Shown piece by piece: positions 15,151 to 64,000 of a stretch of DNA of 64,000 bases. A program made the translations under genes and the position numbers. The notes below the pieces were generated by a model that was given only the letters and a program-made list of their open reading frames with translations, was not told the origin of the DNA and did no database searches. The first letter of the stretch is position 1; each line of letters begins with the position of its first letter. This DNA comes from an uncultured Bacteriovoracaceae bacterium (lineage in GTDB: Bacteria > Bdellovibrionota > UBA2428). Location of the stretch: NCBI GenBank assembly GCA_937952285.1, contig CALFZE010000130.1, positions 18,282 to 82,281 of the forward strand, given 5' to 3'.

Positions 15151-15244
15151 CGGTGTCATATCCCCCTTCCCAGGATAATCGAATCGTCCCGACTGCGATA
15201 CGGGTCGCTGGCGTCCGGAGCGGAAGGGACGCATACTTAGAGCC

Positions 15245-16051
15245 ATGAAAACGCACCGCCTGCCCGTTTTGGCCCTCTTCGCGCTCACCCTGAACGGCCC
15301 GGCCTTGGCGCAGAAGGCGCCGAGCGCCGACGAGATCATGCAGAAGAGCGAAAGCGCGCGCCGCATTCCGCAGCTCAAGGCGGAGGGTCTCCTCGCCACG
15401 AGCGGCGACGGTGCCCCTTCCGACAAGACCTTCCTGTTCTCCCGCAAGCTGACCTCGGACGGCACGCGTTTCCGCACGCTCACCCGTTTCAAGACGCCGG
15501 CCACGGTCCGCGACCAGGCCATCCTCTTCCTCGAACGCGACAGCGACTCGAGCGACATCTTCATGTACCTGCCCAACTTCAAGAAGACCCGCCGGGTCGA
15601 GTCCCACGCCCAGAGCGGAAGCTTCATGGGCACGGCCTTCAGCTATTCCGACATCGCGAATCCCCACGCCGAGGACTACACGCACAAGCTGCTCAAGTCC
15701 GAGAAGTGCCCCGGCGGCGCGAACAACTGCTTCGTCGTCGAGTCGACCCCCCGCACCGCGGGCGTGAAGGAACGCACCGGCTACTCGAAGTCCGTCCAGT
15801 GGATCGATTCCGTGAGCTACCTTCCCGTCAAGGGCGAGTTCTACGACGCCAAGACCCAGAAGCTCCGCAAGCAGATGGTGTCGAGCGACATCCAAGCCGT
15901 CGGCGCGAAGAAGGCCCACTACCTCGCCCACCGCTCCGAGATCACGGATCTCACGAACGGCCGCAAGAGCCGCCTCGTGTTCTCGAAAGTCAACGTCGAC
16001 GAGAATCTCCGCGATAACCTCTTCACCCAGGCCGCCCTCGAGTCGCCCTGA
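15245..16051 (+). CDS. Periplasmic LolA-like protein (outer-membrane lipoprotein-sorting-protein family)
   Basis: Signal peptide followed by a 268-aa domain with the layout of LolA-like proteins. It is paralogous to the ORF at 40888-41670. Confidence 0.65.
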   Translation: MKTHRLPVLALFALTLNGPALAQKAPSADEIMQKSESARRIPQLKAEGLLATSGDGAPSDKTFLFSRKLTSDGTRFRTLTRFKTPATVRDQAILFLERDSDSSDIFMYLPNFKKTRRVESHAQSGSFMGTAFSYSDIANPHAEDYTHKLLKSEKCPGGANNCFVVESTPRTAGVKERTGYSKSVQWIDSVSYLPVKGEFYDAKTQKLRKQMVSSDIQAVGAKKAHYLAHRSEITDLTNGRKSRLVFSKVNVDENLRDNLFTQAALESP

Positions 16052-16071
16052 GCGGATCCGCGAAGCGTCCG

Positions 16072-36557: not shown

Positions 36558-36677
36558 AATGGGGCATCGCGCCACGGCGAATTCCGTTTAGGCGCCTTTC
36601 GACTGAGCCCGGAAAAAGTGAGCGTCGCGCTTCGCGCGCCGGGTGCGCCCCCACCTTTTGGGCTATCCTCGGGCGCC

Positions 36678-37382
36678 ATGAGCGAAGCCTCGATCGAACT
36701 CACGAACGTCGTCAAAGAATACCAGCTCGGCAAGGTCACCGTGCCGGCCCTCAAGCAAGTGAGCTTGCGCATCGAGAACGGCGAATTCACCGTCATCGCC
36801 GGCCCGTCGGGCAGCGGCAAGACGACGCTCCTGAACCTCATCGGCTGCGTGGACCTCGCCACGCGCGGGAACGTCGTGGTGAGCGGCAAGGACACGGCCC
36901 AGCTCACGGAGCGCGAGCTCACGGACCTGCGCTTGCACCGCATCGGTTTTATCTTTCAATCCTTCAACTTGATCTCCGTGCTGAACGTCTACGACAACGT
37001 CGAGTTCCCCCTCCTCTTGATGAAGGACCTCGACGCGAAGGAACGCCGGGAGCGGGTCCTCCACTTTATCCATAAAGTCGGCCTGCAAGACCACATGAAG
37101 CATCGTCCGAACGAGCTTTCGGGCGGCCAGCGCCAGCGCGTCGCGATCGCGCGCGCGCTCGTCACGAAACCGCGCATCGTCCTCGCCGACGAGCCCACCG
37201 CGAACCTCGATTCGCAGACGGGCCAGAGCATCCTCGACCTCATGAAGCACATCAACGAGAGCGAAAAGACGACCTTCCTCTTTTCGACGCACGACGATCG
37301 CGTCATCCGCCAGGCCCGCCGCATCGTCAAGCTGCGCGACGGCGCGATCGAGTCGCTCGGTCTCGAAGGCCGCGCGAACTAG
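36678..37382 (+). CDS. ABC transporter ATP-binding protein (LolD/MacB-type)
   Basis: Walker A GPSGSGKTTLLN, signature LSGGQRQRVAIARAL, Walker B IVLADEPT. The start is taken at MSEASIELTNV; the track ORF begins 60 nt upstream. Confidence 0.9.
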   Translation: MSEASIELTNVVKEYQLGKVTVPALKQVSLRIENGEFTVIAGPSGSGKTTLLNLIGCVDLATRGNVVVSGKDTAQLTERELTDLRLHRIGFIFQSFNLISVLNVYDNVEFPLLLMKDLDAKERRERVLHFIHKVGLQDHMKHRPNELSGGQRQRVAIARALVTKPRIVLADEPTANLDSQTGQSILDLMKHINESEKTTFLFSTHDDRVIRQARRIVKLRDGAIESLGLEGRAN

Positions 37383-37393
37383 GGGAGCCTGGG

Positions 37394-39487: not shown

Positions 39488-39497
39488 GGAATCCGAA

Positions 39498-40856
39498 ATG
39501 AGCCAACTCTTCACCATCGCCCGCCGCAACCTCATCAGCCACCGCGGACGCACGCTCATCCTGGGCGGCGCGATCGCGCTCGTCACTTGTCTCATGGTCT
39601 TCATGATGGCCCTCACCCGCGGCATCAAGGCCCGTATGATCGAGAACGCCACGGCTCTCTCAACGGGGCACGTGAACGTAGGTGGTTTTCTCAAGATCAG
39701 CCAAAGTTCGGCCGCGCCGATCGTCACGCAAGCCGCGCGCGTGCGCGAGCTCCTTGCGCGCGAAGTTCCCGAGGCCACCCTCATCGTGGACCGCGTGCGG
39801 GCCTACGGCAAGATCATCTCGGATACGAACTCGATCATGGTGCCCATCACGGGCATCAACATGGCCACGGAAAAGCGCATCCTGGGCGGGCTCAACCTGG
39901 CCCGCGTGCGCGACTACGTGGAGGCCTACGCCCCCGCCCCGGGCGCCCCGGAAGCCGAAGGGAGCATGGCCGACCTCGAGCAACGCGGCGGTCTCGCGAT
40001 CTTCGCTTCGCACGCCCGCAAGCTCAAGGCCCGCGTGGGCGACGTCGTGACCGTCTCGATGCCGACCTACCGCAACGTCTACAACACGAAGGACGTGCGC
40101 ATCGCCGCCATCCTGCAGGACCTCGGCATGATCTCGAGCTTCACCATGTTCATGCACCACGAAGACGTGCGCGAGATCTACGACATGGCGGCCGACACGA
40201 CGAGCGTCTTCCAGATCTACCTGCCTTCGCTCGACGCCGTGCCCGCCGTCGAGGACCGCCTCCGCAAAGCACTCTCCGCCGCGAGCTTTACGCTCATGGA
40301 CAAGGACGCGAACCCCTACTGGATGAAGTTCGAACGCGTGGCCGGCGAGTCCTGGACGGGCCAACGTCTCGACCTCACGAACTGGGAAGACGAGACTTCG
40401 TTCCTCAAGTGGGTCCTGGATATCTTCAACGCGCTCACCTTCGCCCTCACTTTCGTGTTGATGGTCATCATCGTGATTGGCCTCATGAACAACATGTGGA
40501 TGGCCATCCGGGAGCGTACCTCGGAGATCGGCACGATGCGCGCCGTGGGGCTGCAGCGGCGGGGCGTGCTCGTCATGTTCCTGCTCGAATCGCTCCTGCT
40601 CGCGACGGCGAGCGTCGGGATCGGCATTGTGGCCGGCTCGCTGCTCGCCACGGGCGTCGCTGCCCTCGAGATCCCGATCCGATCGGACGCCTTCGTCATG
40701 TTCTTCATGTCGAACTCGCTCTGGCTCCAGGTCGGCGCGGGCGACCTGGCCTTCACCTTCGTCCTGCTCTCGACCTTGCTCATGGTGGGCGCGCTGCTGC
40801 CCGCCTACCGCGCGAGCAAGCTCGAACCCATCACGGCGATTAACCACGTCAATTAA
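39498..40856 (+). CDS. ABC transporter permease, FtsX/MacB-like (second subunit)
   Basis: 452 aa with the same topology (AIRERTSEIGTMRAVGLQR). Confidence 0.85.
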   Translation: MSQLFTIARRNLISHRGRTLILGGAIALVTCLMVFMMALTRGIKARMIENATALSTGHVNVGGFLKISQSSAAPIVTQAARVRELLAREVPEATLIVDRVRAYGKIISDTNSIMVPITGINMATEKRILGGLNLARVRDYVEAYAPAPGAPEAEGSMADLEQRGGLAIFASHARKLKARVGDVVTVSMPTYRNVYNTKDVRIAAILQDLGMISSFTMFMHHEDVREIYDMAADTTSVFQIYLPSLDAVPAVEDRLRKALSAASFTLMDKDANPYWMKFERVAGESWTGQRLDLTNWEDETSFLKWVLDIFNALTFALTFVLMVIIVIGLMNNMWMAIRERTSEIGTMRAVGLQRRGVLVMFLLESLLLATASVGIGIVAGSLLATGVAALEIPIRSDAFVMFFMSNSLWLQVGAGDLAFTFVLLSTLLMVGALLPAYRASKLEPITAINHVN

Positions 40857-40887
40857 ACGCGGGCGCGACCCGCAGGAAGGACCGAAC

Positions 40888-41670
40888 ATGAAACGCCCGC
40901 TCAAGATCCTCGGACTCGCGGCCCTCGCCGCGTTCTCCGCTCCCGTGGCCCGCGCCGCCCTCTCCGAGAAGGACGCGCTCGAGCTCGTGAAGCTCGTCGA
41001 CGAGAAGCAACGCAACTCGGGCGATTACGCCTCGCTTTGCTTCGTCAAGGAAACCGAACGCAAGAAGGAGCCCAAGGTCTTCCAGGCCATGGTCTATCGC
41101 CGCGACGCCGACGACAAGTTCATGATCCTCTTCACCAAGCCCAAAGAGGAGGCCGGCAAGGGTTACCTCAAGATCGACAAGAACCTGTGGATGTACGACC
41201 CCTCCACGGGCAAGTGGGAGCGCAAGACGGAGCGCGAGCGCATCGGCGGCACGAACTCGCGGCGCTCGGATTTCGACGAATCGCGTCTCGTCGAGGAGTA
41301 CGACATCAAGGTCGACGGCGAAGGCACGCTCGGCAACTTTAAGGTGCACAAACTCAAGCTCACCGCGAAGAAGGGCAAAGACGTCGCCTACCCCGTGCTG
41401 GGCCTCTGGATCGACCAGGCCGACAAGAACGTGCTCAAGCGCGAGGAGTTCTCGCTCTCGGGCAAGCTCATGCGCACGACCTTCTACCCGAAGTGGACCA
41501 AGAAGTTCAGCGAGTCCAAGAAGGCCGACGTCTGGATCCCCGAAGAGATGCGTATTTTCGACGAGCTCGAGAAGGGCAACTCGACGGTCGTCACGATCAA
41601 GGAAACCGACCTCAAGCCCCTCGATGCCAACATCTTCACCAAAGCCTGGATCGAATCCAAGAGTAAATAG
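40888..41670 (+). CDS. Periplasmic LolA-like protein (outer-membrane lipoprotein-sorting-protein family), paralog of 15245-16051
   Basis: The start MKRPLKILGLAALAAFSAPVARA is preceded by GGAAGGACCGAAC. The 260-aa protein has the LolA-like architecture; the 5' part of the track ORF is spurious. Confidence 0.7.
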   Translation: MKRPLKILGLAALAAFSAPVARAALSEKDALELVKLVDEKQRNSGDYASLCFVKETERKKEPKVFQAMVYRRDADDKFMILFTKPKEEAGKGYLKIDKNLWMYDPSTGKWERKTERERIGGTNSRRSDFDESRLVEEYDIKVDGEGTLGNFKVHKLKLTAKKGKDVAYPVLGLWIDQADKNVLKREEFSLSGKLMRTTFYPKWTKKFSESKKADVWIPEEMRIFDELEKGNSTVVTIKETDLKPLDANIFTKAWIESKSK

Positions 41671-41672
41671 GG

Positions 41673-42944
41673 ATGACCATGACGAAGATTAAGCTGCAGT
41701 CCCTGACTTACGCGCTTCTCGTGGCGAGCCTTCCGGCCTCCGCGCAGGATGCGGCTCCGCAACCCGCCCCGCCGACTACCGAAGCCGAAGGTGGCACGAG
41801 CGAGGATTTCGAGCGCGGGTTCGGCGCCGAAGGCGGGATGTCGGAGGCCGACAAGGGCACGACCGACGCGGACCGACTCAAGATCGGCGGCACGCTCGCC
41901 GCGGATCTCTACGTCTTCGGCACCCGGGATCGCGACTACCTCAAGAACCTCAACACGCTTTGGGTCTACGCCGACGCGCAGCTACGCGAGGACGTGCGGG
42001 CCTTCGCCAAGTTCCGTGGCGTCGTCGATGCCCTCCCGACGGGCGGCGCGGTCGGCGCCAGCATCCCGGCCGCGCGCTCCGACGTCGAGGAGCTCAAGCT
42101 CATGTTTAACGCCGGCAAGGCCGTCTTCTTCACGGCCGGCCGCCAGAAGATCAAATGGGGCGCGGGTAAGTTCTGGAATCCGACCGACGTCATGAACTCC
42201 GCGCGCCGCGACCTGCGCTACACGGACGACCGGCGCTCGGGTATGGACCTGCTCAAGACCCACGTGCCGGTAGGCCCGGCGAATTTTTACCTCGTGCAAG
42301 GTTTCAACGGCGCCACCCGCGTGAACGAGATCGCGCACGCCGCGCGCGTCGAAGTTCCGTGGAGTTCGGGCGAGGCTTCGCTCAGCGTGGCCAAGCGCCG
42401 CGGCGAGAACACCGTGCTCGGCGCCGACCTCTCCTTTGCCGTGTGGGATCTCGATCTGCACGCCGAAGTCGCGGGCTCGAGCCCTTCGAATCAACTTCGC
42501 TTCGGCCCCACGGGCCCCGTCGCCACGAACGGAACGCACGTGAGCTGGGTCGCGGGCGCGAGCTACGAGCTCCCGTACGGCGACAACGACTCGCTTAGCC
42601 TTATCGTCGAGTACTTCCGCAACGGCGACGGCTACGCCAAGGCCGACTACGCTTGGCCGATCGCGAACGGGGCCTACGCCCCCTACTACCTCGCCAAACA
42701 GTACCTGCTCGCGATGCTGCTCGTGCCGACGCCTGGCTCGTGGAACGACACGACCTTCAGTCTGCTCAACCTCTTTAACCTCGAGGACGGCAGCGCCTAC
42801 ACCAAGTTCACGACGGGCTTCAGCTTCCTGCGCGACCTCACCTGGCAGATCGGCGCGAGCCTCAACTACGGCAAGTCCGACGGCGAGCTCCGCTTCGGCG
42901 GCCAACGCTACGGCCTCGAAACCCGCCTCCTCGCCAATTTCTAA
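41673..42944 (+). CDS. Outer-membrane beta-barrel protein, paralog of 16072-17358
   Basis: Signal peptide and C-terminal F. GRQKIKWGAGKFWNPTDVMN matches the GRRIRSWGIADGVNPTRFF of the other OMP. Confidence 0.65.
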   Translation: MTMTKIKLQSLTYALLVASLPASAQDAAPQPAPPTTEAEGGTSEDFERGFGAEGGMSEADKGTTDADRLKIGGTLAADLYVFGTRDRDYLKNLNTLWVYADAQLREDVRAFAKFRGVVDALPTGGAVGASIPAARSDVEELKLMFNAGKAVFFTAGRQKIKWGAGKFWNPTDVMNSARRDLRYTDDRRSGMDLLKTHVPVGPANFYLVQGFNGATRVNEIAHAARVEVPWSSGEASLSVAKRRGENTVLGADLSFAVWDLDLHAEVAGSSPSNQLRFGPTGPVATNGTHVSWVAGASYELPYGDNDSLSLIVEYFRNGDGYAKADYAWPIANGAYAPYYLAKQYLLAMLLVPTPGSWNDTTFSLLNLFNLEDGSAYTKFTTGFSFLRDLTWQIGASLNYGKSDGELRFGGQRYGLETRLLANF

Positions 42945-51246: not shown

Positions 51247-51634
51247 GCTCGTTCGGCTCGCGAAGGACGAAGCCCTCGCGGCCGGCGTCGTCGGGCACGA
51301 AGGATCCCGGCTCCGGGTGCTCTTCTCGGAGCTTCGTCGCTGGCATTCCCCGACGGAGTGGATCGTCTTCTACCGGCACGCGGGCACCTACTACTACCCA
51401 CTCGCCTTCGAATTCCGCTCGGTGAACAACAACCTGCTGCACTTGGTCCTGGAACTCGGGATCCGGGACTTCGACGTCTTGGCGAGCTTCGTACAGGATT
51501 CCCTGCAGAGGCACGAGCGCCTCGAAACCGTCGTGCGCGCGCTCGTCGTGGAGATGCCGTCGGAGCCCCCCTATGCGGTGCCGCTCCGAGACTTCTCCAT
51601 TTCCGAGGCGCTCCGCGATCTCGTCTACTTGTGA
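51227..51634 (+). CDS. Hypothetical protein (135 aa)
   Basis: Overlaps the upstream ORF by 20 nt; same strand. Confidence 0.4.
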   Translation: MSRDLFELVRLAKDEALAAGVVGHEGSRLRVLFSELRRWHSPTEWIVFYRHAGTYYYPLAFEFRSVNNNLLHLVLELGIRDFDVLASFVQDSLQRHERLETVVRALVVEMPSEPPYAVPLRDFSISEALRDLVYL

Positions 51635-52929
51635 GCGTCCTTGAGCTCCGAAACGCGGACCGGGATCTGGAAGGACTTCTCGATCGCGATCTTCGCCTTG
51701 ATGAACTCGATCTTCAGTTCGGAGCGGCGCTTCTTGGCCTCGAGCCAGGTTTCCTCGGCGCCCTTGACGTCGGCCCCGTTCTTCACGCCCCGACCGAACT
51801 CGGCCAGCGTGGAGCGGTAGAGCCGCTCGGCCCGGGCTTCGTTGCTCACCTCGATGTCCACGCGTTGGGTGATCGACTGCAGTTTGCGGATGCCCGACTC
51901 GACCTCGGCCATGCCGCCGAGGAGCGCCTGCTTGGCGTTGAATTCGTCGCGTCGTAGCTCGGCCTCGGCCCGCGCGCCTTCCGCGCTCGTGCGGAAACCC
52001 GAAAAAAGCTCCCAGGAAGCCATCACCCCCGCCGAATAACTCACCCGCTCGCCGTCGAAACGATCGGCCAAAGGTAAAGCCCCGAAGCGGGCCTCGACGT
52101 CGAGCTTGGGCATCCACCCCGCCCGCGACGCCTTGAGCGCCGCGAGCGATCCCTGCGCCGTCAGGCTGGCCTGCCGCACGCTCTCGCTCCTCTCCTTCAC
52201 GAGGGCCAAGTAGGAATCGACCGTCCCCTCGAGGTGCCAATGCGGAAGCTCGCCGCGCGGCTCGAAGCCCATCCCGAGCTCCGGCCCGAGGCGTCGCACG
52301 AGACTCAGCTTGATCTCGTCGAGCTCCTGCTTCGTTCGATTGAGTTCGGACAGCAGCGAAGAATCCCGGAGCTCGAAATCCATGAGATCCGACTCGGAGG
52401 AAAGTCCCGAAGCCTTGCGCCGTTTGACCGCCCCCAGGTGCTTCGCGTTCAGCTCGATCGACTCCGCCACGTAGTCGTGGACGCGCTTCTTGAAGAGGTA
52501 GTCGTAAAAGAGGCCTTCGACCTCGAGCCGAAGCTCGTTCACGGCCTGCTCGTAGCGGCTTTCGGAGAGCTGCCGGAGCGTGTCGGCTCGCCGACCTTCG
52601 TTACGATCGGCGAGCCCATTGAAAAGGTTCCAACGGCCGTAGACGAAGCCGACGGGCGCCGACTCCCGCGCGCCCGCGCTCCCTTCGACCTCGAAGCCCC
52701 CGGCGACGCCGAGCTTCGGGTAGAAGTTCGAGCGCGACGAACGAAGCGCGGCCGCCTGGACCGAGACCTCCGCCTTCAAAGCCTGCACCCCGAAGTTGTT
52801 CGCGACGGCGTAGGCTTTGGCGTCTTCGACGCCGACGTAGCGGACGCCCGGCTCCGCTCCCCACGCGAGGGACGAAGCGAGGGTACCCAGGACCAAGGCC
52901 AGTCGTCCAAGCGGCTCCATAGGCTTCAC
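51625..52929 (-). CDS. Outer-membrane efflux protein (TolC/CzcC-like OMF)
   Basis: 434 aa with a signal peptide and two tandem OEP repeats rich in coiled-coil heptads. Confidence 0.75.
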   Translation of the reverse strand: MKPMEPLGRLALVLGTLASSLAWGAEPGVRYVGVEDAKAYAVANNFGVQALKAEVSVQAAALRSSRSNFYPKLGVAGGFEVEGSAGARESAPVGFVYGRWNLFNGLADRNEGRRADTLRQLSESRYEQAVNELRLEVEGLFYDYLFKKRVHDYVAESIELNAKHLGAVKRRKASGLSSESDLMDFELRDSSLLSELNRTKQELDEIKLSLVRRLGPELGMGFEPRGELPHWHLEGTVDSYLALVKERSESVRQASLTAQGSLAALKASRAGWMPKLDVEARFGALPLADRFDGERVSYSAGVMASWELFSGFRTSAEGARAEAELRRDEFNAKQALLGGMAEVESGIRKLQSITQRVDIEVSNEARAERLYRSTLAEFGRGVKNGADVKGAEETWLEAKKRRSELKIEFIKAKIAIEKSFQIPVRVSELKDAHK

Positions 52930-52932
52930 TCC

Positions 52933-53358
52933 TCAGTTTCTTTCGACTTTGTAGGCCACGCTGTCGGCCTTGCCGTTGATCTTGAAGGCGACCTTGAGCG
53001 TGTAGAGGTGGCTCTTCTTGGGATCGAAGCTCGTCTCGAAGTGATCCGCGTTCGACTTGAGCACGAGCTTCGTGACGACGGGCTTCGCGTTCTTGGCCGG
53101 CACGACCTCGGCCGTCGCCTCGACGTCCGAGAGCGCCGTCATCGGCAACGCCTTCGTCTTGCCGTCGTAGGGATAAATTTTGAGGACGTTGCCGATGCGA
53201 ACGAGCTCGAGGTAGCCGCCCAGCGCGGGCTGGATCTCGCCGCCCTTGGGCGCCGCGACGGCGCCGGGAACGCCGTGATCGTGCCCCTCGCCGGCCGCGG
53301 CCGAGAAGCCGCCACCCAGGATGGCCAACAGTGCGATCGTCGAAGACAATTTTTTCAT
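52933..53358 (-). CDS. Small periplasmic protein (141 aa) encoded between the RND pump and the OMF
   Basis: The start MKKLSSTIALLAILGG is preceded by AAAGGAGAGAAA, 10 nt after the RND pump's TAA. It has a signal peptide and an N-terminal GEGHDHG. Confidence 0.55.
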   Translation of the reverse strand: MKKLSSTIALLAILGGGFSAAAGEGHDHGVPGAVAAPKGGEIQPALGGYLELVRIGNVLKIYPYDGKTKALPMTALSDVEATAEVVPAKNAKPVVTKLVLKSNADHFETSFDPKKSHLYTLKVAFKINGKADSVAYKVERN

Positions 53359-53368
53359 TTTCTCTCCT

Positions 53369-56300
53369 TTATTCATTTCCTTCGTCCTCCCCTCGGAGGA
53401 CGCTTCTTTCGGACGCCTTCCGGGCGAAGGCGTAGAACGCGGTGGGCGTGACGACGAAATCCAGGATCGTCGAGCTCAGCAGACCGCCGACGATGACGAC
53501 CGCCACGGGGTGAAGGATCTCGCTCCCGGGTTGTCCCTTCGCGAAGACGAGCGGCATCAAGCCGAGCGCGGCCGTGAGGGCCGTCATCAAGACGGGAATG
53601 AGCCGCTCGAGCGATCCGCGGATGACCATCTCCTTCGTGAACTTCTCGCCCTCGTGCTTCATGAGGTGCAAGTAGTGCGAGATCATCATGATCCCGTTGC
53701 GGCTCGCGATCCCGCAGAGGGTCACGAGGCCGATGAGGCTCGCCACCGAGAAGACGCGATCGATCGCGAAGAGCGAATAGAGCCCGCCCATAAAGGCGAG
53801 CGGGACCGTGAGCATGATCTGCGCCGTGATCATCGCCGACTTGAAATGCGCGAAGAGCACGAAGGCGATGCCGAGTACGCTCACCAAGCTGAACAATACG
53901 ATCCGGCGCGTCGCCGAGCGCTGGGCCTCGAACTGGCCGCCGTACGCGACGTAGTAGCCTTCGGGGAGCTCGACCTTCTCCTGCACCCGCCGTTGGATGC
54001 TCTCCACGACGCTGCCGAGGTCGCGGCCGGCCACGTTGCCGTAGACCACGATGCGTCGCATGCCGTTCTCGCGGTTGACCTGGTTCGGTCCGCTCGACTC
54101 GTAGACGTCCGCGATCATGTCGAGGGTCACGCGCCGGCCGTCGGGCATCGTCTTGAAGGGCGTATTCTTCATGAGCTCCAGGTTGCCGCGCGAGACGTCG
54201 TCAAAACGGTAGAAGACGTCGTAGACTTTCTGGTCCTCGATGACCTGCGAAACGATGCGGCCGCCGAAGGCGAGCTCGAGCATCTTGGAGACCTCGCCCA
54301 CGTTGAGACCGTAGCGCAGCGTCTCCTCGCGCAGGAGATGGATCTTGACCTGGGGAATGAGGGCCTGCTGCTCGACGTTCAGATCGACGAGCCCCTCGAT
54401 ATCCTGGATCGCCCCGCGAAGCTCGGCCGCCTTGACCCGTAGCATGGCGAGGTCGCTCCCGAAGATCTTGATGGCGAGCTGGGCGTTCACGCCCGACAGG
54501 AGGTGATCGAGCCGGTGCGAGATCGGCTGGCCGATGTTGACCGCGACGTTCGGGATGGCTTCCAGGTTCTCGCGCAGCTCGTCGAGGATGGCCTCGCGTG
54601 AGCGCGTCGCGTCCTTGCGGAAGGAGACGTCGATCTCGGAGACGTTAACGCCTTCGGCGTGCTCGTCGAGCTCGGCCCGGCCCGTCCGGCGCGAAACGAA
54701 CTTCACTTCGGGGGTCTTCAGGATCAGGTTTTCGGCCTCGGAGCCAATCGCGTTCGATCGCTCGAGCGAGGTTCCCGGCACCGAAACGACCGAGACCATG
54801 GCCGTGCCTTCGTTGAACTTCGGCAGGAAGTCCTTGCCCATGAAGGGGAGCAACGCGATCGAGCCGAGGAACATCACAAAGGCGACCGACAGCACTTTTT
54901 TCGGGTGATCGAGCGCCCACTCCAGGATGCGGCGATCGAAGGCCTTGAGCTTCGTGACGATCTTCGTCTCGTGGTGTTCCTTGAACTCCGCGTTCCGGAA
55001 GAAGAAAGAACAGAGCACGGGCGTCACGGTGAGCGACACGAGAAGCGACGCGCCCAGCGCCGTCACGTAAGCGATGGCGAGCGGGGTGAAGAGACGACCC
55101 TCGAGTCCATCCAGCGCGAAGAGCGGGATGAAGACGAGCGCGATGATGACCGTCGCGAGGACGATCGAGTTGCGAACCTCGCTCGACGCCTCGAAGACGA
55201 TCTTGAGGATCGACCGCTTGGCGCCCGCGGCCCGGTTCTCCTTGAGACGCCGAAAGACGTTCTCGACGTCGACGATGGCGTCGTCCACGACCTCGCCCAC
55301 GGCGATGGCGAGACCCCCGAGGGTCATCGTATTCACCGAAAGCCCGAAGAGCTCGAAGACGATCGCCGTCACGAGGAAGGACAGCGGAATGGCCGTGAGC
55401 GTGATGGCCGTCATGCGGAGGTTCGCCAGGAAGAGCAGCAGGATGACCGTCACGAGGATGCTGCCGTACTTGAGCTTGCCCTTGACGCCCGCGATCGAGA
55501 CCTCGATGAAGTCCGACTGCTTGAAGATCTCCGGGTTCACTTCGACGCCCTTCGGAAGCGTCCGTTGGATCTCGGCGATGGCCGCGTCGACCCGCTCCGT
55601 GAGCGCGACGGTATCCGTGCCGGGTTGTTTTTGGATCGACATCACGACGGCGGGCTTGGCCATGAAGGAACCGTCCCCGCGCTTGGTGCGCGGGCCGATC
55701 TTCACTTCGGCGACGTCCTTGATGAGGATTGAGCGGCCCAGGTGAACGCCGATGACCGTGTTCTCGATATCCTCGACGCTCTTCACGGCGCCGATGTTGC
55801 GGACAAGAAACTCCTTCTGATCCTTATCCAAGAAGCCGCCCGTCGTGTTCGTACCGACGTGACCCAGGTACTCGTCGAGCGCCTGCAGGTCGAGCTGGTA
55901 GTTCTTGAGCTTGGTCGCCGAGAAAAGGATCTGGTACTGCTTGAGCCCGCCCCCGATCGAGATGACCTGGGCGATGCCCGGGATCGTGAGGAGCCGGGGC
56001 CGGATCGTCCACTCCGCCAGGGTCCGCAGGTCGAGGGGCGTGACTTCGGGGTTGCTCGAGGACAACGCGATCGTCTGGATCTGCCCCATGATCGAGCTGA
56101 TCGGCCCCATCACGGGCTGGATCCCCTCGGGAAAATGCTCCGCCGCGACCGCGAGTTTCTCCGCGACGAGCTGCCGGTTGCGGAAGATGTCCGTTCCCCA
56201 GTCGAACTCGACGTAGACCACGGACAGGCCGACGCCCGACGACGAGCGGATCCGCTGCACCCCGGGGAGGCCGTTCAGGTTCGACTCGAGCGGCAAGGTC

Positions 56301-56494
56301 ACGAGCGTCTCGACCTCCTCGGGCGCCATGCCACCCGCCTCGGTCATGATCGTCACGGTCGGCCGGTTCAAATCCGGAAAGACGTCGATGGGAAGTTTGA
56401 AGAGCGTGGCCCCGCCCCATACGACGATCAGCGCCACGAGGGCGAGAACGACGAGCCGGTGCCGAAGGGCCGCCTTGATGATGAGATCTAACAT
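53369..56494 (-). CDS. Heavy-metal-efflux RND transporter permease (CzcA/CusA family)
   Basis: 1041 aa with 12 TM helices and two large periplasmic loops. N-terminus MLDLIIKAALRHRLVVLALVALIVVWG...DVFPDL. Confidence 0.9.
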   Translation of the reverse strand: MLDLIIKAALRHRLVVLALVALIVVWGGATLFKLPIDVFPDLNRPTVTIMTEAGGMAPEEVETLVTLPLESNLNGLPGVQRIRSSSGVGLSVVYVEFDWGTDIFRNRQLVAEKLAVAAEHFPEGIQPVMGPISSIMGQIQTIALSSSNPEVTPLDLRTLAEWTIRPRLLTIPGIAQVISIGGGLKQYQILFSATKLKNYQLDLQALDEYLGHVGTNTTGGFLDKDQKEFLVRNIGAVKSVEDIENTVIGVHLGRSILIKDVAEVKIGPRTKRGDGSFMAKPAVVMSIQKQPGTDTVALTERVDAAIAEIQRTLPKGVEVNPEIFKQSDFIEVSIAGVKGKLKYGSILVTVILLLFLANLRMTAITLTAIPLSFLVTAIVFELFGLSVNTMTLGGLAIAVGEVVDDAIVDVENVFRRLKENRAAGAKRSILKIVFEASSEVRNSIVLATVIIALVFIPLFALDGLEGRLFTPLAIAYVTALGASLLVSLTVTPVLCSFFFRNAEFKEHHETKIVTKLKAFDRRILEWALDHPKKVLSVAFVMFLGSIALLPFMGKDFLPKFNEGTAMVSVVSVPGTSLERSNAIGSEAENLILKTPEVKFVSRRTGRAELDEHAEGVNVSEIDVSFRKDATRSREAILDELRENLEAIPNVAVNIGQPISHRLDHLLSGVNAQLAIKIFGSDLAMLRVKAAELRGAIQDIEGLVDLNVEQQALIPQVKIHLLREETLRYGLNVGEVSKMLELAFGGRIVSQVIEDQKVYDVFYRFDDVSRGNLELMKNTPFKTMPDGRRVTLDMIADVYESSGPNQVNRENGMRRIVVYGNVAGRDLGSVVESIQRRVQEKVELPEGYYVAYGGQFEAQRSATRRIVLFSLVSVLGIAFVLFAHFKSAMITAQIMLTVPLAFMGGLYSLFAIDRVFSVASLIGLVTLCGIASRNGIMMISHYLHLMKHEGEKFTKEMVIRGSLERLIPVLMTALTAALGLMPLVFAKGQPGSEILHPVAVVIVGGLLSSTILDFVVTPTAFYAFARKASERSVLRGEDEGNE

Positions 56495-56521
56495 TCTATT
56501 CCTCGCCGATTTCGGAGGCCG

Positions 56522-57292
56522 TTAGAGAAGGACGCGAAGACCGAGCTCGATCGACCACGCCCGCAGGGGCGCGCTCGCCGACAATCCGCGGTGGATCGCC
56601 CCGGACAACGTGATTCCGTCAAGCCAAGCGTCGGGGGCCCGCGACGAAGCCGCCGTCTCGAAAAGGCTCAGGCCCCCCCGCAGCGCGAGGTTCGGGATCC
56701 AGTAGCCTTGGTCCATGCCGTCGAGCGCGCCGCTCTGGTAGAAGAACTGCGCCCCCAACGACGGCGCCAGGAAGGCCGTGACCGCCGGGGCCGCGCGAAG
56801 CGGGTGGCTCACGCGCACGCCCGCCGCCAGGGGCAACGCGTGCACGCTCACGAAGTCCTTGAGCACGGCGCTCTGCGCCGAAACCACGTCGACGAGCGCC
56901 TCGCGCATCCCGTAACCCACCGCGACGAACGGCTCGACGCCGAATCCCCGCGCGTCGAACTTCTTCGACGCCGAGATCTGCACCGAGGGAAGCGCGCCCA
57001 TCTGCGAAGCGTAGTCGACCGAGAAGAAAGCGTTCGACAGCTCGAGCGCCGACCACGAGAGGTACGAGGCGCCGAACTCCAGATGGAAGGGACTCGCCTC
57101 GCGCGCGAGGGAAGCGTCCATCTCCCGCGCGGATCGCGAAAAGAGGCTCCGGAAGTTGGATTCGTCGACCGCGATGCCGGGCGTCGCCGGCGCTGCGGCG
57201 GGCGCCGCGGCCTTGGGCTTTTCGCGGGCGCCGACGGGAAGCGCGAAGAACGCGCCCAGACCCAAGGCGATGACTCGTTGACGAGCAAACAT
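56522..57292 (-). CDS. Small outer-membrane beta-barrel-like protein (256 aa)
   Basis: The start MFARQRVIALGLGAFFALPVGA was verified at 57292-57290. It shows alternating amphipathic strands and ends LGLRVLL. The track ORF begins 66 nt upstream. Confidence 0.5.
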   Translation of the reverse strand: MFARQRVIALGLGAFFALPVGAREKPKAAAPAAAPATPGIAVDESNFRSLFSRSAREMDASLAREASPFHLEFGASYLSWSALELSNAFFSVDYASQMGALPSVQISASKKFDARGFGVEPFVAVGYGMREALVDVVSAQSAVLKDFVSVHALPLAAGVRVSHPLRAAPAVTAFLAPSLGAQFFYQSGALDGMDQGYWIPNLALRGGLSLFETAASSRAPDAWLDGITLSGAIHRGLSASAPLRAWSIELGLRVLL

Positions 57293-57294
57293 GA

Positions 57295-57813
57295 TTAACG
57301 ACCTCCTTCGCGGGAGAGCCGGAGCGTCCCCGACGCGCCGACCGAGGCGGCGCTCCAAACGCCGACGAGATCCGCCCCCTGCACCGAAACGTTGAGCACG
57401 AGATCCTGGAACTGCGAGTGAACGACGACGAGGTTCAGGCGTCCCGGGGCCGCGAAGTACTCCGCCGAGCCGACCGGGGCGTCGGAATACTCGCCGACCT
57501 CTTCGCTGCCGTAAAGAAAGCGCAGGTAGCCGATCAGCTTGGGCACCAGCACGGGATCGACCCCCGCCCCGCTTTGCCCTTCCGGGACGTCGCGCACCTC
57601 GAGATTCAGGACGACGGGCTGCTCGTAATCGGACGCGCCGAGCAAGTTCCCGGCGTACCGGCCGCCGACCTGGCCGAGCTCCGAGCGTTTGACCTCGGCC
57701 AAGTTCATGTCGCGCTGGCGGGCGATCTCGCGATCGCTCGGCCGGCGCTGGCTACAAGCCGACAGCGCCGCGAGCGAGAGCGCGAGCGCGAAAAGCCGGA
57801 TGTTCTTTCTCAT
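57295..57813 (-). CDS. Lipoprotein (172 aa)
   Basis: Lipobox LAALSAC. Its stop is 2 nt before the next ATG. It shares a VGVWSAASVGASG motif with neighbouring paralogs. Confidence 0.55.
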   Translation of the reverse strand: MRKNIRLFALALSLAALSACSQRRPSDREIARQRDMNLAEVKRSELGQVGGRYAGNLLGASDYEQPVVLNLEVRDVPEGQSGAGVDPVLVPKLIGYLRFLYGSEEVGEYSDAPVGSAEYFAAPGRLNLVVVHSQFQDLVLNVSVQGADLVGVWSAASVGASGTLRLSREGGR

Positions 57814-58631
57814 TGTACGCTCTCCAATTCGATCGTGCCGACGCGGCCGAGGCCGTCCGCGAAGACGTCCGCGACGAAATCGCCGTCGGGGGAAAGCACG
57901 CCCTTCAGCGTGATCCCGTGCTGGGCCGTTTTAAGGGTGAGGTAACGGTTGTAGAAGTTGAACTTCGCCTCGGCGATCGGCGTCTCGACGAACTCCCCCG
58001 AGCCGAAATCGCCCAGGTAAAAGCGCAGGTTGCCGGAGATGCGGAGCTCGACCGTTCCTCCTTCCGCGGGAGTTTGCGTCGTGACGAGCGACAGGCTGAG
58101 TCGCTCGGGAAGGTTGGATTCGGGATGGGTGTTCACGAGCGTCCCGCGGTAGTGGCCGGTGACCGTCTTCACGAGAACCGAGCCGCGCTCGATCGCGGGC
58201 ACCTGCGACTTCTGGGCGGCGAAGCGACCGACGCGACCCGCGCTCGACGAAAACCATTCCCCCGTGATGGCGCCGTTGCGAAGCGTCCCGATGAAACTCA
58301 CGTCGTTGCCGTCGGCGCGGAGGCTCAGCTGCCGGGTGAGCAGGTTCATCGGCACGTCCGGGTACTCGTAGGTCAGGAACTCGTTCGAGCTCCAGTCGCC
58401 GAAGATCATCCGCACGCTCGCCGAAATCTTGAGCGTGCCGCCGATGTTCACGGTGCGAATCGTGAGCGTGGCGAACTGATGGTACTTCGTCGGCTCCGCG
58501 CCCCGGGGTTCGTGGTTGAGGACCGTCCGGTAGGTCCCTTGGATGGACTCGGTTTGCGCCCCCGCGACCGGGGTCGCGAGAAAGGCGGCCCCGAGCGCGA
58601 GCGAAGGAAGGTATCGGGTGAAGAAGTTCAT
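57810..58631 (-). CDS. Secreted protein with two copies of a ~130-aa module
   Basis: Signal peptide; modules IFGDWSSNEFLTYEYPDV ... GEWFSSSAGRVGRFAA; ATGA overlaps at both ends. Confidence 0.6.
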   Translation of the reverse strand: MNFFTRYLPSLALGAAFLATPVAGAQTESIQGTYRTVLNHEPRGAEPTKYHQFATLTIRTVNIGGTLKISASVRMIFGDWSSNEFLTYEYPDVPMNLLTRQLSLRADGNDVSFIGTLRNGAITGEWFSSSAGRVGRFAAQKSQVPAIERGSVLVKTVTGHYRGTLVNTHPESNLPERLSLSLVTTQTPAEGGTVELRISGNLRFYLGDFGSGEFVETPIAEAKFNFYNRYLTLKTAQHGITLKGVLSPDGDFVADVFADGLGRVGTIELESVQ

Positions 58632-60207
58632 GGTTTCTCCTCGTTCAAGACTTTGAACAGACGGGGCGCCTCGAAGACGGGCATGATCGTGCCGTAGCCG
58701 TTGGAGGTCATGAGGGCGCTCAAGTGGGCGCCCTCATGGCGTTTGGCGCTAAAAAGGCGGTCGTCGCCGTAGAGCAGCGCGAGGCGCCCCACGTAAAAAT
58801 CATAGCTGCCGGCGACGACGTTCTCCTTGGCGGCGCCGCGGAACCACATCGTGCCGCCAAGCTGCAGCGGATAGTACGGGTTCTCGGTGTTGGGCGGCGT
58901 CGTGCCCTGGAAGACTTTCAGATCGAGCGAGAAGGTGTCGTGTCCGTAGCGGGCCGTGAGCGGGACGACGCGACGGGCGTCGGGCCGGGGCTTCACGCCG
59001 CCGTCTTTGGCCGCCTCGAAGGACCCCACCCGGCCGAAGAGCAGCGAGTACCACTCCCCGCGGATCGTGCCGTCCTTCAGCGTCGTGACCTTGAGGAAGG
59101 CGTCGACGTCGTCGTCCAGCCGACTCAAGACGAAGTCCGAACGGAGGATCGGATTCGGGTAATCCCGCGGCTCGAAGCGGTAGGCGATCGCCTCGTGGCT
59201 GCGCTCCGACCCGAAGAAGAGCGTCGCCACGGCCGAGATCCGGAGCGTCGACTCTCGTCCGTCCGTGGCCTGGTAGGTGGCCACGTCGATGCGAATGGGC
59301 TGGTAGGCGTCGAGGTACTCGTGGTGGACGTAGCCCCGGTAGGCGCCCGCGATCGCGGAAGGCGACGACGAAGCGGCCGCTTGCTCGCGCACGAAGCTCG
59401 CCTTCGCTCGCGGCGGCGCGAACTCGCGCGAGCGGGACTCGGAAGAGCGCCGCTCGAAGCGACAGCCCGCCCCGCAGTTCAGCGCGTTCCCCTCGACTTT
59501 ACAGTCAAGGTTCGAGAGGCGGCCCACGAGCTCAAGCTGGCCTCGGTAGAAGTCGTAGGTCCCCTGGGTGAAGGTGTCGCGGTTGCACACCCGCCCGCTC
59601 CCTTGGTCGAAGCAGAGGGAATCGTTGAGCACGCCGACTTGCGCCCGCACGTCGTAGGCCGCGAAGGGCGACCCGATGCGCGAGGAGTCCCCGGTGGAGC
59701 GGAAAGTGTGGATCTGGAGCGCCCGATTCTCGCCTTCGCACTTGCCGACGTATTCGCCGTTCAACGGCTCGATGAGCGGCCGGGCCGGATTCGCCACGCC
59801 GTCGAGGTTGAGCGAAAGCTCGCCGATCTGCCCAGCTTGGCCACGAGCTCTCCCGCCGCGAAACGCGTCGTGACGATCGTCGCGTCTTCGTCGGCCGAGT
59901 CGAAGGTGAGAACGCCGGTCACGAGTCCGTAGTGAACCTTGTCGAAATGGTACGAGACGTACTCCCCACTCCGGAAGTCGCCGAAGTGGAGAGTCAAGAC
60001 GGCCTTGAGGTCGAGCTCGTTGCCGGCGGTCCGCGACATCACGAAGTCGAGCTTCGCGAGCTGCTCCCTTCCGAGTCGCTCGTGCTTGAGGGTCCCGACG
60101 TAGCGGCCAAAGACGCCGCTTTGCGCCCACGCCCGAACGGAAGCAAACGAAGCCGCGCAAACGAGAACGAGGACGGACAGACGGCGAACGAGTTTTCGAC
60201 CTCCCAC
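58628..60207 (-). pseudogene. Paralogous secreted protein (~527 aa) interrupted by a frameshift near 59800-59830
   Basis: The N-terminal 149 aa (GTG at 60207, RBS AAAGGGGG, signal peptide, HFGDFRSGEYVSYHFDKV) are in the frame of track ORF 59761-60657. The rest (IRGEWYSLLFGRVGSFEAA...) is in the frame of 58628-60433, which has no start codon near the switch. Confidence 0.5.
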
Positions 60208-60218
60208 GATCGCCCCCT

Positions 60219-60593
60219 TTACTCGCTTCGCGAGGCGGCCTTCTCGACCGTATCGCCTTCCTTGAAGTCGACGCCTTCGGGGAAGCTCGCGACCGAATAG
60301 TGGGCGTCGTAAACCTTGCGAATCGTTCCCGTCCCGATCGTGCGGGGACGGCAGCGGAACTCGGCGGCGCCCGAGGCGCGGCCGCCGGCGACCTTCTCCG
60401 CGACGCATTCGTGCCGGACGACGCGAACGGCATCGCCCACGGCGACCTGTTTGTTGCCGAGGCAGACGTGCGCCTCGCCGCCCTCCGTCTTCATGACGAC
60501 GGACCCGCGGTGTTCGCCTTCGTGAGGTTTCGCGGTCGCGCAAGCACTCAAGACCAGTCCAATAAGCCCAAGCATGGGCATTGAGATTTTCAT
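60219..60593 (-). CDS. Small His/Cys-containing lipoprotein (124 aa)
   Basis: Lipobox LVLSAC with an internal start MKISMPMLG. It is the first gene of the co-directional cluster. Confidence 0.5.
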   Translation of the reverse strand: MKISMPMLGLIGLVLSACATAKPHEGEHRGSVVMKTEGGEAHVCLGNKQVAVGDAVRVVRHECVAEKVAGGRASGAAEFRCRPRTIGTGTIRKVYDAHYSVASFPEGVDFKEGDTVEKAASRSE

Positions 60594-61808: not shown

Positions 61809-62409
61809 GCGACCTTTTTACGCCCCTTATCGCTTCGACGCACCCACGAAACGAAAGACGCACCCAGCCACATCTGTAACTTGCCCTTACATAAAAATCG
61901 GAGGCTCCAGGCATTCGCCCGCTCTCCGCACGAGAGGCATCAATGCGACGCCTCACTATCGTGAGCACGGCGAGTGGGAGGTCTACGACTATCTGCACGC
62001 AACTGATTGGCGCAAAGTAGAACGCCGCCTTCATCGAGCCTTTTCCAGCAGCAAGAAGAAATCAAATTCAGCAAATGAACTCTATTCGGCTTCTCTTCTG
62101 GAAGCGCAAAACGCACTTCACAGCGCGCCCCTCGATCTACAAGTTGGCCGGGAGAAACTCGAACGCTTCAGACAAGACAGAGCACTGAAGTCCTACTTGA
62201 ACGAGTCGCTTCTTACGACTTGCCTATACGGACACCTGGACCCACAGGGAACATGGGCACTGAAGCTATTTCCCCCTACGGCGGGCGGACGCCAGTTCAC
62301 ACTAAGCATTGGCTCACACGAAGTCGTCTTCTCGGCAAACACTTCGGCGAATCATCATTGCCTCGTAATGGATGAACTCGCGCGCGATATTCCCGAATTA
62401 AAGAGGTGA
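61798..62409 (+). CDS. T5orf172 (GIY-YIG-like) domain protein; start uncertain
   Basis: PYIKIGGSRHSPALRTRGINA...EWEVYDYLHATDWRKVERRLHRAF fits the T5orf172/Mug113 pattern (KIGxT...R...E...H..F). The gene lies in a roughly 48% GC segment. Confidence 0.45.
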   Translation: MNSMRPFYAPYRFDAPTKRKTHPATSVTCPYIKIGGSRHSPALRTRGINATPHYREHGEWEVYDYLHATDWRKVERRLHRAFSSSKKKSNSANELYSASLLEAQNALHSAPLDLQVGREKLERFRQDRALKSYLNESLLTTCLYGHLDPQGTWALKLFPPTAGGRQFTLSIGSHEVVFSANTSANHHCLVMDELARDIPELKR

Positions 62410-62694
62410 CTGGAGAAGCACCGAGGCGGCTGCCAAAGGGCTGCCTATAGAACAGCCGGGGATCGAGCCCTCTCGGTCCATTTCAACGGCGATCTTTCCG
62501 ACGCTCAGCGCTTTCTTAAGGTTCGCGGAGTACGACGGGCGCTAGTCGCCTACTGGGCAGATTAACTCGCCAACTTACGAGAACGAGCGGAACAAAGCCC
62601 GTACGCGAGGTATTACGACCACAATGCTGTCATGGACCTCGTGGACTATTAGCGCGCCTATTCTCCATAGGCCCGCAACCCTAGCCTTGCGCTA

Positions 62695-63114
62695 TTAGTC
62701 GCACCGATACGCTGAGGTGAAAAACTGGGGCGACCCCTGAGGAGCTGGCTGTTGGTGAATAAAGTACGTCGGAAAGAATTTCGATCCGGGGATTAGAGTC
62801 CAAAAGAAGACGTCTCCAGAATCTAGCTTCTCGTAAAATGACCTATCACCAACTTTCGTCAGTTTTGACTGGCGACCAGAATTCTTAAAAAGCGCATGAT
62901 CCTTGGTGACGGCAATTGAGACTACTTCGGCGTCCTTTGGAGTGCGCACCTCACCCTCCATCCGCCCAGTTTTTAGTTCGGTCGCGGCTCCCATACGATG
63001 AGACAAATGCGACATTGTTTCCAGCTTGCAGGAGTAGATCCTATCCTGAGCTTGGGCCGAATGCGTGACTGCAAAAATCCAAACACTCAATCCAACCAAC
63101 AAGGTTCTCTTCAT
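62695..63114 (-). CDS. Small secreted hypothetical protein in the low-GC island
   Basis: Internal start MKRTLLVGLSVWIFAVTHSAQAQ (signal peptide). Confidence 0.4.
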   Translation of the reverse strand: MKRTLLVGLSVWIFAVTHSAQAQDRIYSCKLETMSHLSHRMGAATELKTGRMEGEVRTPKDAEVVSIAVTKDHALFKNSGRQSKLTKVGDRSFYEKLDSGDVFFWTLIPGSKFFPTYFIHQQPAPQGSPQFFTSAYRCD

Positions 63115-63221
63115 TCCCTCAAATGTAACACGAGCCGAGAACCCGTGGGTAGACATGCGGGAGGCGCGCCAAACAATCCCGAACGAGCATCTCACGCCGA
63201 CGGCGAGCTGCGAGCTCGGAA

Positions 63222-63983
63222 CTAAATGCCTCGACCCTGTACCCTTATCCGAAAGTCCTCAGGCGTTGTCCTAATCCAAACTGAAGCAAAAAGGTGTCCC
63301 ACATCCGGGCCTTGGCCTGGGTGTGGCGGAAAAGGTTGAATCTGCCCATTCAAGACTTTTCGGATACCGATATGCCTCTGCCCGCTGAGATGAAGAGCAA
63401 TCTCAGCGTCCTCAACCCGTATCGGACGCCCATACCCAGCCCACCGAACAAATGGAATTGATAAATAGACCCCCTGATACGTCGACAGAGACCCTGAGCT
63501 CTTAGCAAAGATCTCGCTACTCTCTTTGGCCACAATTTTTGCATAAAACTCAGCTCTCTTGCCGGGCTCAAGAATACGAAACTGATAGAGCTCGACTAGA
63601 GTGAACTCCACCGTCTCCCCATTTCCATTCGGGACCAGCCTAGCAAGCACGGTGTCACGGACAGGGAGCGCAATGGTGTACGCGCTAAAAGGGCAGTTTT
63701 CTTCAGTCCATTCACCCGAGAATCGCACTTTTACAACCCCACTTAGAGTCTTTATGCGATCCTGCTCAATGGCCAACCGGCTAGTGAGTTCCTGTATTCG
63801 AATGGCCTGACTAAGATTCTCATTCTTCAAGAGCAAAGAATCATTCTGAATACTGAGCACCTGATTCTCAGAGGCTGCAACCTTCAAACTCTGTTCATTG
63901 GACTCAATTCGACCAAGATGCGCAGCCCAAACCGCCAAAGCCGCGACGAAAAAAGAAACAGACTTTAATGCCTTTCGGGCCAA
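63222..63983 (-). CDS. Membrane-anchored hypothetical protein with a coiled-coil segment (low-GC island)
   Basis: Signal/anchor MARKALKSVSFFVAALAVWAA followed by heptad-rich LSIQNDSLLLKNENLSQAIRIQELTSRLAIEQDRIKTL. Confidence 0.45.
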   Translation of the reverse strand: MARKALKSVSFFVAALAVWAAHLGRIESNEQSLKVAASENQVLSIQNDSLLLKNENLSQAIRIQELTSRLAIEQDRIKTLSGVVKVRFSGEWTEENCPFSAYTIALPVRDTVLARLVPNGNGETVEFTLVELYQFRILEPGKRAEFYAKIVAKESSEIFAKSSGSLSTYQGVYLSIPFVRWAGYGRPIRVEDAEIALHLSGQRHIGIRKVLNGQIQPFPPHPGQGPDVGHLFASVWIRTTPEDFRIRVQGRGI

Positions 63984-64000
63984 TGGCTGACTTTCAAAAA

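Follow-up and report, generated by a model that had tools for sequence, protein, structure and literature searches.

The stretch of DNA analyzed here (64,000 nt, hereafter the window) comes from an uncultured Bacteriovoracaceae bacterium (assembly GCA_937952285.1, contig CALFZE010000130.1, positions 18,282 to 82,281). The minus strand of its positions 51,625-60,593 carries eight co-directional genes, among them a heavy-metal efflux (HME) pump of the resistance-nodulation-division (RND) type and an outer membrane factor (OMF) of the TolC family, and none of these genes encodes a membrane fusion protein (MFP), the periplasmic adaptor of tripartite pumps. The window pump and 18 related pumps without a nearby MFP gene form a single clade in the phylum Bdellovibrionota. 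A previous sequence-only reading had described the cluster as eight co-directional genes lying -4 to 27 nt apart, one of them a frameshifted paralog, and this description proved accurate. From 5' to 3', the genes are the following:

60219..60593, minus strand: 124-aa lipoprotein with lipobox LSAC, first gene of the cluster (open reading frame with its start and Shine-Dalgarno sequence; alternative upstream start at 60623)
58628..60207, minus strand: ~530-aa secreted paralog whose reading frame shifts once, near 59,835 (tblastn and domain matches)
57810..58631, minus strand: 273-aa secreted paralog, predicted to fold into two 8-stranded up-and-down beta-barrels (avidin/lipocalin-like)
57295..57813, minus strand: 172-aa lipoprotein with one copy of the barrel domain (jackhmmer domain matches; no Pfam family)
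56522..57292, minus strand: 256-aa secreted protein encoded immediately before the pump, resembling a small outer-membrane protein (OMP) in its amphipathic beta pattern
53369..56494, minus strand: HME-family RND pump, 1041 aa (PF00873, TIGR00914)
52933..53358, minus strand: 141-aa periplasmic protein, CrdA-like by its predicted fold and motifs
51625..52920, minus strand: TolC-family OMF, 431 aa (two PF02321 repeats; alternative start at 52929)

The successive spacings are 11, -4, -4, 2, 27, 10 and 12 nt, and a Shine-Dalgarno-like sequence precedes each of the eight genes. A scan of the cluster for promoters and terminators gave counts no higher than expected by chance and no internal terminator of note. 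Apart from the pump and the channel, the cluster genes (six in number) matched no Pfam or NCBIfam family. The identities proposed earlier for the pump and the channel stand. The pump matched PF00873 with an E-value of 2.6e-273 over positions 1-1020 of 1021 and scored 819.8 bits against TIGR00914, the CusA/CzcA family (cut-off 701.45). Its closest relatives of solved structure are ZneA (E 4e-146) and CusA (E 8.5e-140). The OMF matched both PF02321 repeats (E 3.4e-41) and stayed below the cut-offs of TIGR01844 and TIGR01845, so it was assigned to no named subfamily.

The designation of the pump as CusA/CzcA-like was right as to family, but its metal site is not that of CusA. In an alignment with E. 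coli CusA, the methionine triad M573/M623/M672 is replaced by Ser/Val/His, and M403, M410, M486, M501 and M1009 are replaced as well, leaving only M391. Position 617 is a His, and E567 and E625 are kept. Because the periplasmic site has His and Glu in place of the CusA methionine triad, the substrate is likely a divalent metal such as Zn, Cd, Co, Ni or Cu(II). The equivalents of D405 and E412 (CusA numbering) in transmembrane helix 4 (TM4) are kept in all 19 members of the MFP-less clade and in 60-61 of 61 relatives, and the site pattern is the same in this clade and in the MFP-bearing relatives. The neighborhoods of related loci hold genes for cation diffusion facilitator (CDF) transporters, ZnuABC, P-type ATPases, ArsR/MerR regulators and DsbA/B.

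We searched for an adaptor in the cluster and in the rest of the window. None of nine cluster translations matched an MFP family of Pfam or NCBIfam at E ≤ 1, and about 40 further open reading frames (ORFs) across the remaining window, selected by their third-position GC content (GC3), matched no HlyD/MFP family of Pfam at E ≤ 1e-3. We also built a custom HME-MFP profile with jackhmmer, seeded with the gene upstream of the pump of a related locus (L053; the prefix L marks related loci throughout), which Pfam confirms as an MFP (HlyD_3, HlyD_D23). This profile finds an MFP in every locus from outside the Bdellovibrionota. Applied unfiltered to the window and to the Bdellovibrionota loci, it detected no MFP core; its sole significant matches there were small periplasmic proteins, aligned to the first 60-150 of the 574 profile positions. 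One of them is ORF 52933-53376, which holds the 141-aa protein (E 3.4e-5, positions 9-64 of 574 only), and the match is to the N-terminal accessory domain of long MFPs rather than to the MFP core. Thus, of the two genes singled out beforehand as places where an adaptor might lie, 56522-57292 gave no match and 52933-53358 was touched only at the accessory N-terminal region. A profile restricted to the membrane-proximal (MP) domain of MFPs gave no match in the window, including stop-to-stop ORFs as short as 40 aa, and neither of two predicted cluster folds (the 141-aa protein and a barrel protein) is MFP-like. The earlier claim that no cluster gene is an MFP was therefore borne out by the Pfam, NCBIfam, custom HME-MFP and MP-only profiles and by two structure predictions. 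An MFP elsewhere in the 64-kb window was likewise rejected, the Pfam, custom and MP-only searches being all negative. The 124-aa lipoprotein had been considered as an MP-like domain for its 'GxVV...G..V.VGD.V.VV' look and was rejected with an hhalign probability of 1.4%.

RND pumps usually have their MFP gene linked to the RND gene, and the OMF gene is often found in trans. Scanning species-representative genomes with the window pump yielded 80 loci. We examined up to 10 kb on each side of the pump genes and built a neighbor-joining tree of 87 related pumps. The MFP-less clade comprises the window and L001, L003-L014, L019, L020, L026, L044 and L071, and its named records are Bdellovibrio, Pseudobdellovibrionaceae, Bacteriovoracaceae, Bacteriovorax and Oligoflexia, spanning three classes of Bdellovibrionota. 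In the intact loci from other phyla (58 in the tree), an MFP gene lies upstream of the pump in all cases and is directly adjacent in most; the few remaining loci flagged as having no MFP are cut by a contig end or contain a split MFP gene. A Pfam scan of 107 neighboring ORFs of the clade showed no MFP among the families matched by at least two ORFs, and the precomputed Pfam annotation of neighbors in further contigs agrees with this pattern. An MFP gene adjoining the RND gene, the mark of a canonical tripartite RND operon, is thus found neither in the window nor at any of the 19 clade loci. The conserved core is RND - small protein - OMF, rearranged to OMF - RND - small protein in L012 and L019, and the OMF gene is linked to the pump in all loci that extend far enough. 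The clade therefore inverts the usual linkage rule, with the OMF linked and the MFP not. The gap is common to a monophyletic group of 19 pumps from three classes and is no peculiarity of one genome, and it is well supported that this MFP-less operon type is specific to the Bdellovibrionota and devoted to heavy-metal efflux.

Within this clade the window pump is 85% identical at the protein level to that of L001 (L001:6870-10004), the GC content being 65% in the window and 37% in that locus, and it falls in a 90%-identity cluster of eight sequences. For the adjacent small protein the identity to L001 drops to 53%, and for the OMF to only 27%. This contrast suggests either a far stronger constraint on the pump or a replacement of its partners.

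Many MFP-less pump operons are also closely preceded by a gene for a small secreted His/Cys-rich protein of 105-145 aa that ends in the C-terminal motif (I/F)(K/R)PP(I/L/R)(A/S/V). The window cluster has no such gene. Their positions are as follows:

L001:4534-4923, His/Cys-rich protein
L004:9626-9949, His/Cys-rich protein
L005:9368-9697, His/Cys-rich protein
L012:902-1249, His/Cys-rich protein
L019:3381-3707, His/Cys-rich protein
L020:7426-7782, His/Cys-rich protein
L026:2306-2644, His/Cys-rich protein
L044:5228-5608, His/Cys-rich protein

The small protein encoded between pump and channel has only nine close homologs. They share the invariant mature N-terminus AG(E/D)GHDHGVPG..KGGEI, which includes H26-D27-H28, and an invariant D105-H106. 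Its AlphaFold2 model is a 7-strand beta-sandwich with a predicted local distance difference test (pLDDT) score of 85-90 over residues 45-140, preceded by a disordered His-rich N-terminus. The predicted structure is of the CopC beta-sandwich type, and we predict from it a CrdA-like metal-binding beta-sandwich. No CopC family, and indeed no Pfam or NCBIfam family, matched the sequence at E ≤ 1, which has neither the Met motif of CrdA (PMC9182242) nor the His1/His91 Cu(II) site, and the protein does not have the OB-fold barrel with a Met2His(Trp) site that is typical of CusF. The YtkA-like family PF13115 gave no match to the 141-aa protein and a weak one (E 0.061) to the homologous N-terminal domain of the long MFP of L053. 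Iterated searches showed that this domain is a regular accessory of the pump subfamily, also in MFP-bearing relatives. It is free-standing downstream of the pump in MFP-bearing loci such as L030, L035, L036 and L053, free-standing between OMF and MFP in L033, L038 and L041, and it forms the N-terminal ~130 residues of long MFPs of 550-580 aa (L053, L065, L082 and others). Extra metal-chaperoning domains are carried by HME adaptors and are found as stand-alone proteins too (PMC4446572). We considered the 141-aa protein as a truncated MFP and rejected this, given that its predicted fold is CrdA-like rather than that of an MP or beta-barrel domain and that the domain coexists with full MFPs. Since relatives with an MFP have the same domain, the 141-aa protein is a common accessory rather than a Bdellovibrionota-specific stand-in for the adaptor. 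From the CrdA fold, the His/Asp motifs and the fusion to MFP N-termini, it is most likely a periplasmic metallochaperone.

The genes upstream of the pump encode proteins of another kind. The 172-aa lipoprotein holds a single copy of the barrel domain of ~120 aa, its homologs of 411-416 aa (L006, L009, L071) hold three, and the ~530-aa paralog corresponds to four domain lengths, with two tandem matches to the two-barrel profile of the 273-aa protein. In tblastn alignments of this paralog with intact homologs of 534-550 aa, the frame changes at 59,833-59,866. An intact 529-aa counterpart occupies the same position in GCA_041447055.1, and the frameshift near 59,835 could be a real pseudogene or an assembly error. 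The 256-aa OMP-like protein, with the motif YQSGxLDGxEQGFWxP, is conserved only in window-type loci (L006, L007, L009, L071). Profile searches of the barrel and OMP-like families against PDB sequences were not significant, and no Pfam family matched them. The 124-aa lipoprotein has one homolog (L009:463-816), located just downstream of another MFP-less RND pump. The possibility that the 273-aa protein, its paralogs and the lipoprotein are divergent MFPs was rejected, as they are predicted to be closed 8-stranded barrels of the avidin/lipocalin type with no Pfam or PDB matches.

It had been suggested that the paralogous secreted proteins might be the partners of the pump in place of an adaptor, and the distribution of these genes speaks against it. 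The four barrel and OMP-like genes occur in only one sub-clade (L006, L007, L009, L071, L084-L086 and GCA_041447055.1). Moreover, in L087 (8425-13530) a four-gene module, made up of barrel proteins of 528, 291 and 168 aa and a 253-aa OMP-like protein, directly precedes an OMF gene with neither an RND pump nor the small protein. This module may be tied to the outer-membrane channel rather than to the pump. Because the barrel proteins are limited to one sub-clade and accompany a pumpless OMF in L087, they are not a general substitute for the adaptor.

A second, separate clade of Bdellovibrionota pumps has the operon order OMF - small protein - RND (L009, L020, L086), with OMF - RND only in L007. 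The small proteins of this clade, which we call mini-adaptors, are 128-197 aa long, and all of them include two portions of the MFP membrane-proximal domain, its N-terminal strand and its C-terminal part. In most, a His-rich stretch comes before the domain. The mini-adaptor genes are the following:

L009:4019-4600, minus strand, mini-adaptor
L020:15543-15929, plus strand, mini-adaptor
L086:1326-1853, plus strand, mini-adaptor
L088:10001-10543, mini-adaptor
L089:10001-10594, mini-adaptor

A search seeded with one mini-adaptor retrieved the C-terminal domain of 73 genuine MFPs (E ~1e-24), and the mini-adaptor profile retrieved 660 database proteins. The best 120 of these 660 are all 128-223 aa long, come from Bdellovibrionales and are named 'hypothetical protein', a few of them with Pfam PF25989. 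The complete genome of Bdellovibrio sp. qaytius has this operon too, as does a 2.4-Mb contig of a metagenome-assembled genome (MAG). Judged by their sequences, the mini-adaptors look like adaptors stripped of their beta-barrel, lipoyl and hairpin domains. Without these domains, OMF recruitment could not use the canonical sleeve unless another adaptor acts in trans. Hairpin-free coupling thus seems to exist already in the Bdellovibrionota, because the mini-adaptors are devoid of every domain known to reach the OMF. The two operon types adjoin within a few kb in L007, L009, L020 and L086, separated in the last only by genes for a P-type ATPase, a thioredoxin-like protein and a 114-aa ORF, and a mini-adaptor may possibly serve both pumps. 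No second system is present in the window.

Taken together, the metal efflux operon has three well-supported core parts, namely a proton-driven HME-RND pump, the small CrdA-like protein and a TolC-family channel as exit duct. The CrdA-like protein, with its H-D-H N-terminus, most likely captures the metal and passes it on to the pump, a task that CusF and the accessory domains of metal-pump adaptors perform elsewhere. We propose the following for the coupling. A classical four-domain adaptor would not be part of the system, and the coupling of pump and channel would be hairpin-free and non-canonical. In its most likely form, the RND head would dock directly on the OMF tip, perhaps with an MP-only mini-adaptor encoded elsewhere. 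Hairpin-free coupling of this kind, meaning direct docking either alone or assisted by an MP-only protein from another locus, is the most likely of the readings considered, at about even odds, and we regard the wider proposition, that Bdellovibrionota heavy-metal RND pumps as a group dock directly on TolC-family channels without a hairpin-bearing adaptor, as tentative and rather doubtful. Hairpin-free coupling is supported by the clade-wide loss of the adaptor gene with the OMF still linked, by the MP-only adaptors of the phylum, and by features of the pump and the channel. The docking subdomains of the pump (DN and DC), with approximate boundaries borrowed from AcrB and CusA, are the most diverged from the MFP-bearing relatives (0.34-0.35 identity) and are better conserved within the MFP-less clade (0.50 versus 0.43). 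The OMF tip has the clade-specific conserved motifs SGL..SD and RGVKNS.

Several points weigh against hairpin-free coupling. A compensating extension of the pump head or of the OMF tip was rejected, as neither protein has clade-specific insertions or deletions relative to the MFP-bearing loci, and the pump shows two conservative fixed differences between the clades in ~1040 columns. Nothing structural visibly compensates for the missing adaptor. Of the CusA residues that we take to be salt-bridge partners of CusB (D155, R771, R777 and E584, reportedly described by Su et al. in 2011), the equivalents of the first three are kept in the MFP-less clade, and only E584 is relaxed among these four positions. 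Retention of D155, R771 and R777 fits a pump that still binds an MP-type domain. In addition, every characterized RND-OMF pump needs an MFP (PMC8277102, PMC4446572), and our search for MFP genes extended over 64 kb in the source genome and, for its relatives, as far as 10 kb to either side of the pump.

This search range and the universal requirement for an MFP among studied pumps (PMC8277102) leave room for an ordinary tripartite system with a displaced gene, in which the pump is served in trans by a classical full-length MFP whose gene lies at another place in the genome, as AcrD is by AcrA. The unchanged architecture of RND and OMF and the retained equivalents of CusA R771, R777 and D155 also agree with this possibility, which we nevertheless consider unlikely. 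An MFP adjoins the RND gene in every intact non-Bdellovibrionota locus, none lies near the 19 related pumps in three classes even though the OMF is still linked, and the sister operons keep the MP domain only. The combination of MP-only sister operons and a clade-wide gap suggests that the hairpin-bearing part was dispensed with, not moved.

A new kind of adaptor made of cluster proteins unrelated to MFPs (the barrel lipoprotein, the secreted paralogs and the OMP-like protein) appears far less probable. These candidates are co-transcribed with tiny or overlapping spacings, one of them is a lipoprotein like many MFPs, and they are conserved with the pump throughout the window-type sub-clade. 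However, the barrel and OMP-like genes are absent from most MFP-less loci (L003, L004, L005, L008, L012, L019, L020, L026, L044) and so cannot explain the clade-wide gap; the L087 module precedes an OMF without an RND pump; the predicted closed 8-stranded soluble barrel has no coiled coil, lipoyl or MP domain; and one paralog is frameshifted in the window. The same frameshift could be read as a sign of a decaying cluster, or there might be no trans-envelope complex at all, the pump alone moving metal to the periplasm and the OMF serving other systems. RND proteins without OMF partners do exist in other families. Yet wherever a locus extends far enough, the genes for RND, small protein and OMF are intact and sit close together, and a pump identity of at least 85-90% between genomes of 37-65% GC points to strong purifying selection. 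We consider decay or the absence of a complex the least probable of these explanations.

Two further observations concern other parts of the window. At 15179-17358 and again at 36558-42944, a LolA-like protein is encoded with an unannotated protein of ~425-446 aa next after it. The latter of these pairs comes directly after genes for an ABC ATPase and two FtsX/MacB-like permeases, with no MacA-type MFP gene there. At the end of the window (62001-64000), the GC content falls from ~0.64-0.67 to 0.52, and ORFs 62695-63195 and 63222-63983 in this region have no Pfam family. This segment may be foreign DNA.

Periplasmic adaptors are regarded as indispensable in tripartite efflux pumps, and drug development is targeting them. 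Whether pump and channel meet tip-to-tip via the adaptor hairpins or by direct docking is debated, and so far this debate has relied mainly on a single natural case, the hairpin-less adaptor BesA. In the full-text literature, we found nothing on MFP-less RND pumps in Bdellovibrio, on adaptor-independent RND pumps or on MP-only adaptors. The lineage-wide gap is a natural test of adaptor indispensability, and the adaptor-less operon and its MP-only sister operon, with hundreds of members, offer natural simple systems in which to define the minimal requirements for RND activation and OMF recruitment. If direct docking were true, these would be the first natural adaptor-free RND-OMF pumps and a counter-example to the required hexameric adaptor sleeve. 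If an unlinked adaptor serves them instead, the layout, with the OMF linked and the MFP unlinked, would be unusual and would be missed by annotation pipelines and by operon-based pump catalogs.

Among characterized systems, CrdA-CrdB-CzcB-CzcA of H. pylori includes the MFP CzcB (PMC9182242), which has no counterpart in the window cluster. H. pylori CrdA binds metal via a Met-rich loop without His (PMC9182242), whereas the 141-aa protein has one internal Met together with the invariant H-D-H and D-H, and the two sequences are only 9-12% identical. The cluster resembles E. coli CusCFBA in bringing together an HME-RND pump, an OMF and a periplasmic metallochaperone in one operon, and the pumps align over their full length. 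It differs in having no MFP where E. coli has CusB, in the S/V/H replacing the Met triad, and in its small protein, predicted to be an Ig-like sandwich while CusF is an OB-fold. ZneCAB and CzcCBA of C. metallidurans are close in that ZneA is the best match of solved structure and the site is acidic/His rather than Met, but they have the MFPs ZneB and CzcB. At what is presumably the first Asp of the TM4 motif of divalent pumps, the window pump has an Ala (A399 equivalent).

BesABC of Borrelia burgdorferi is a natural RND-OMF pump with a hairpin-less adaptor and figures in the discussion as evidence that RND and OMF touch each other directly (PMC3807786, PMC4446572), BesA being considered compatible only with direct RND-OMF binding (PMC4446572). 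BesA keeps its lipoyl, beta-barrel and MP domains, in contrast to the sister operons, which keep the MP domain only, and to the window cluster, which has no adaptor gene. The parts of the window operon, an HME-RND pump, an OMF and a CrdA-like fold, belong to known families. In its working the operon is comparable to CusCFBA, CrdA-CrdB-CzcB-CzcA and ZneCAB, and it stands apart by lacking an adjacent MFP, the defining feature of the canonical tripartite type. E. coli AcrD is an orphan RND pump that uses AcrA in trans, its gene having no adjacent MFP gene. AcrD borrows the adaptor of its close paralog AcrB, and no OMF gene is linked to its gene, whereas one is linked to that of the window pump. 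Unlike the case of AcrD, the MFP gap is an ancient trait of a clade that spans three classes, and neither BesABC nor AcrD shows a complete, lineage-wide absence of the adaptor gene with the OMF gene still linked.

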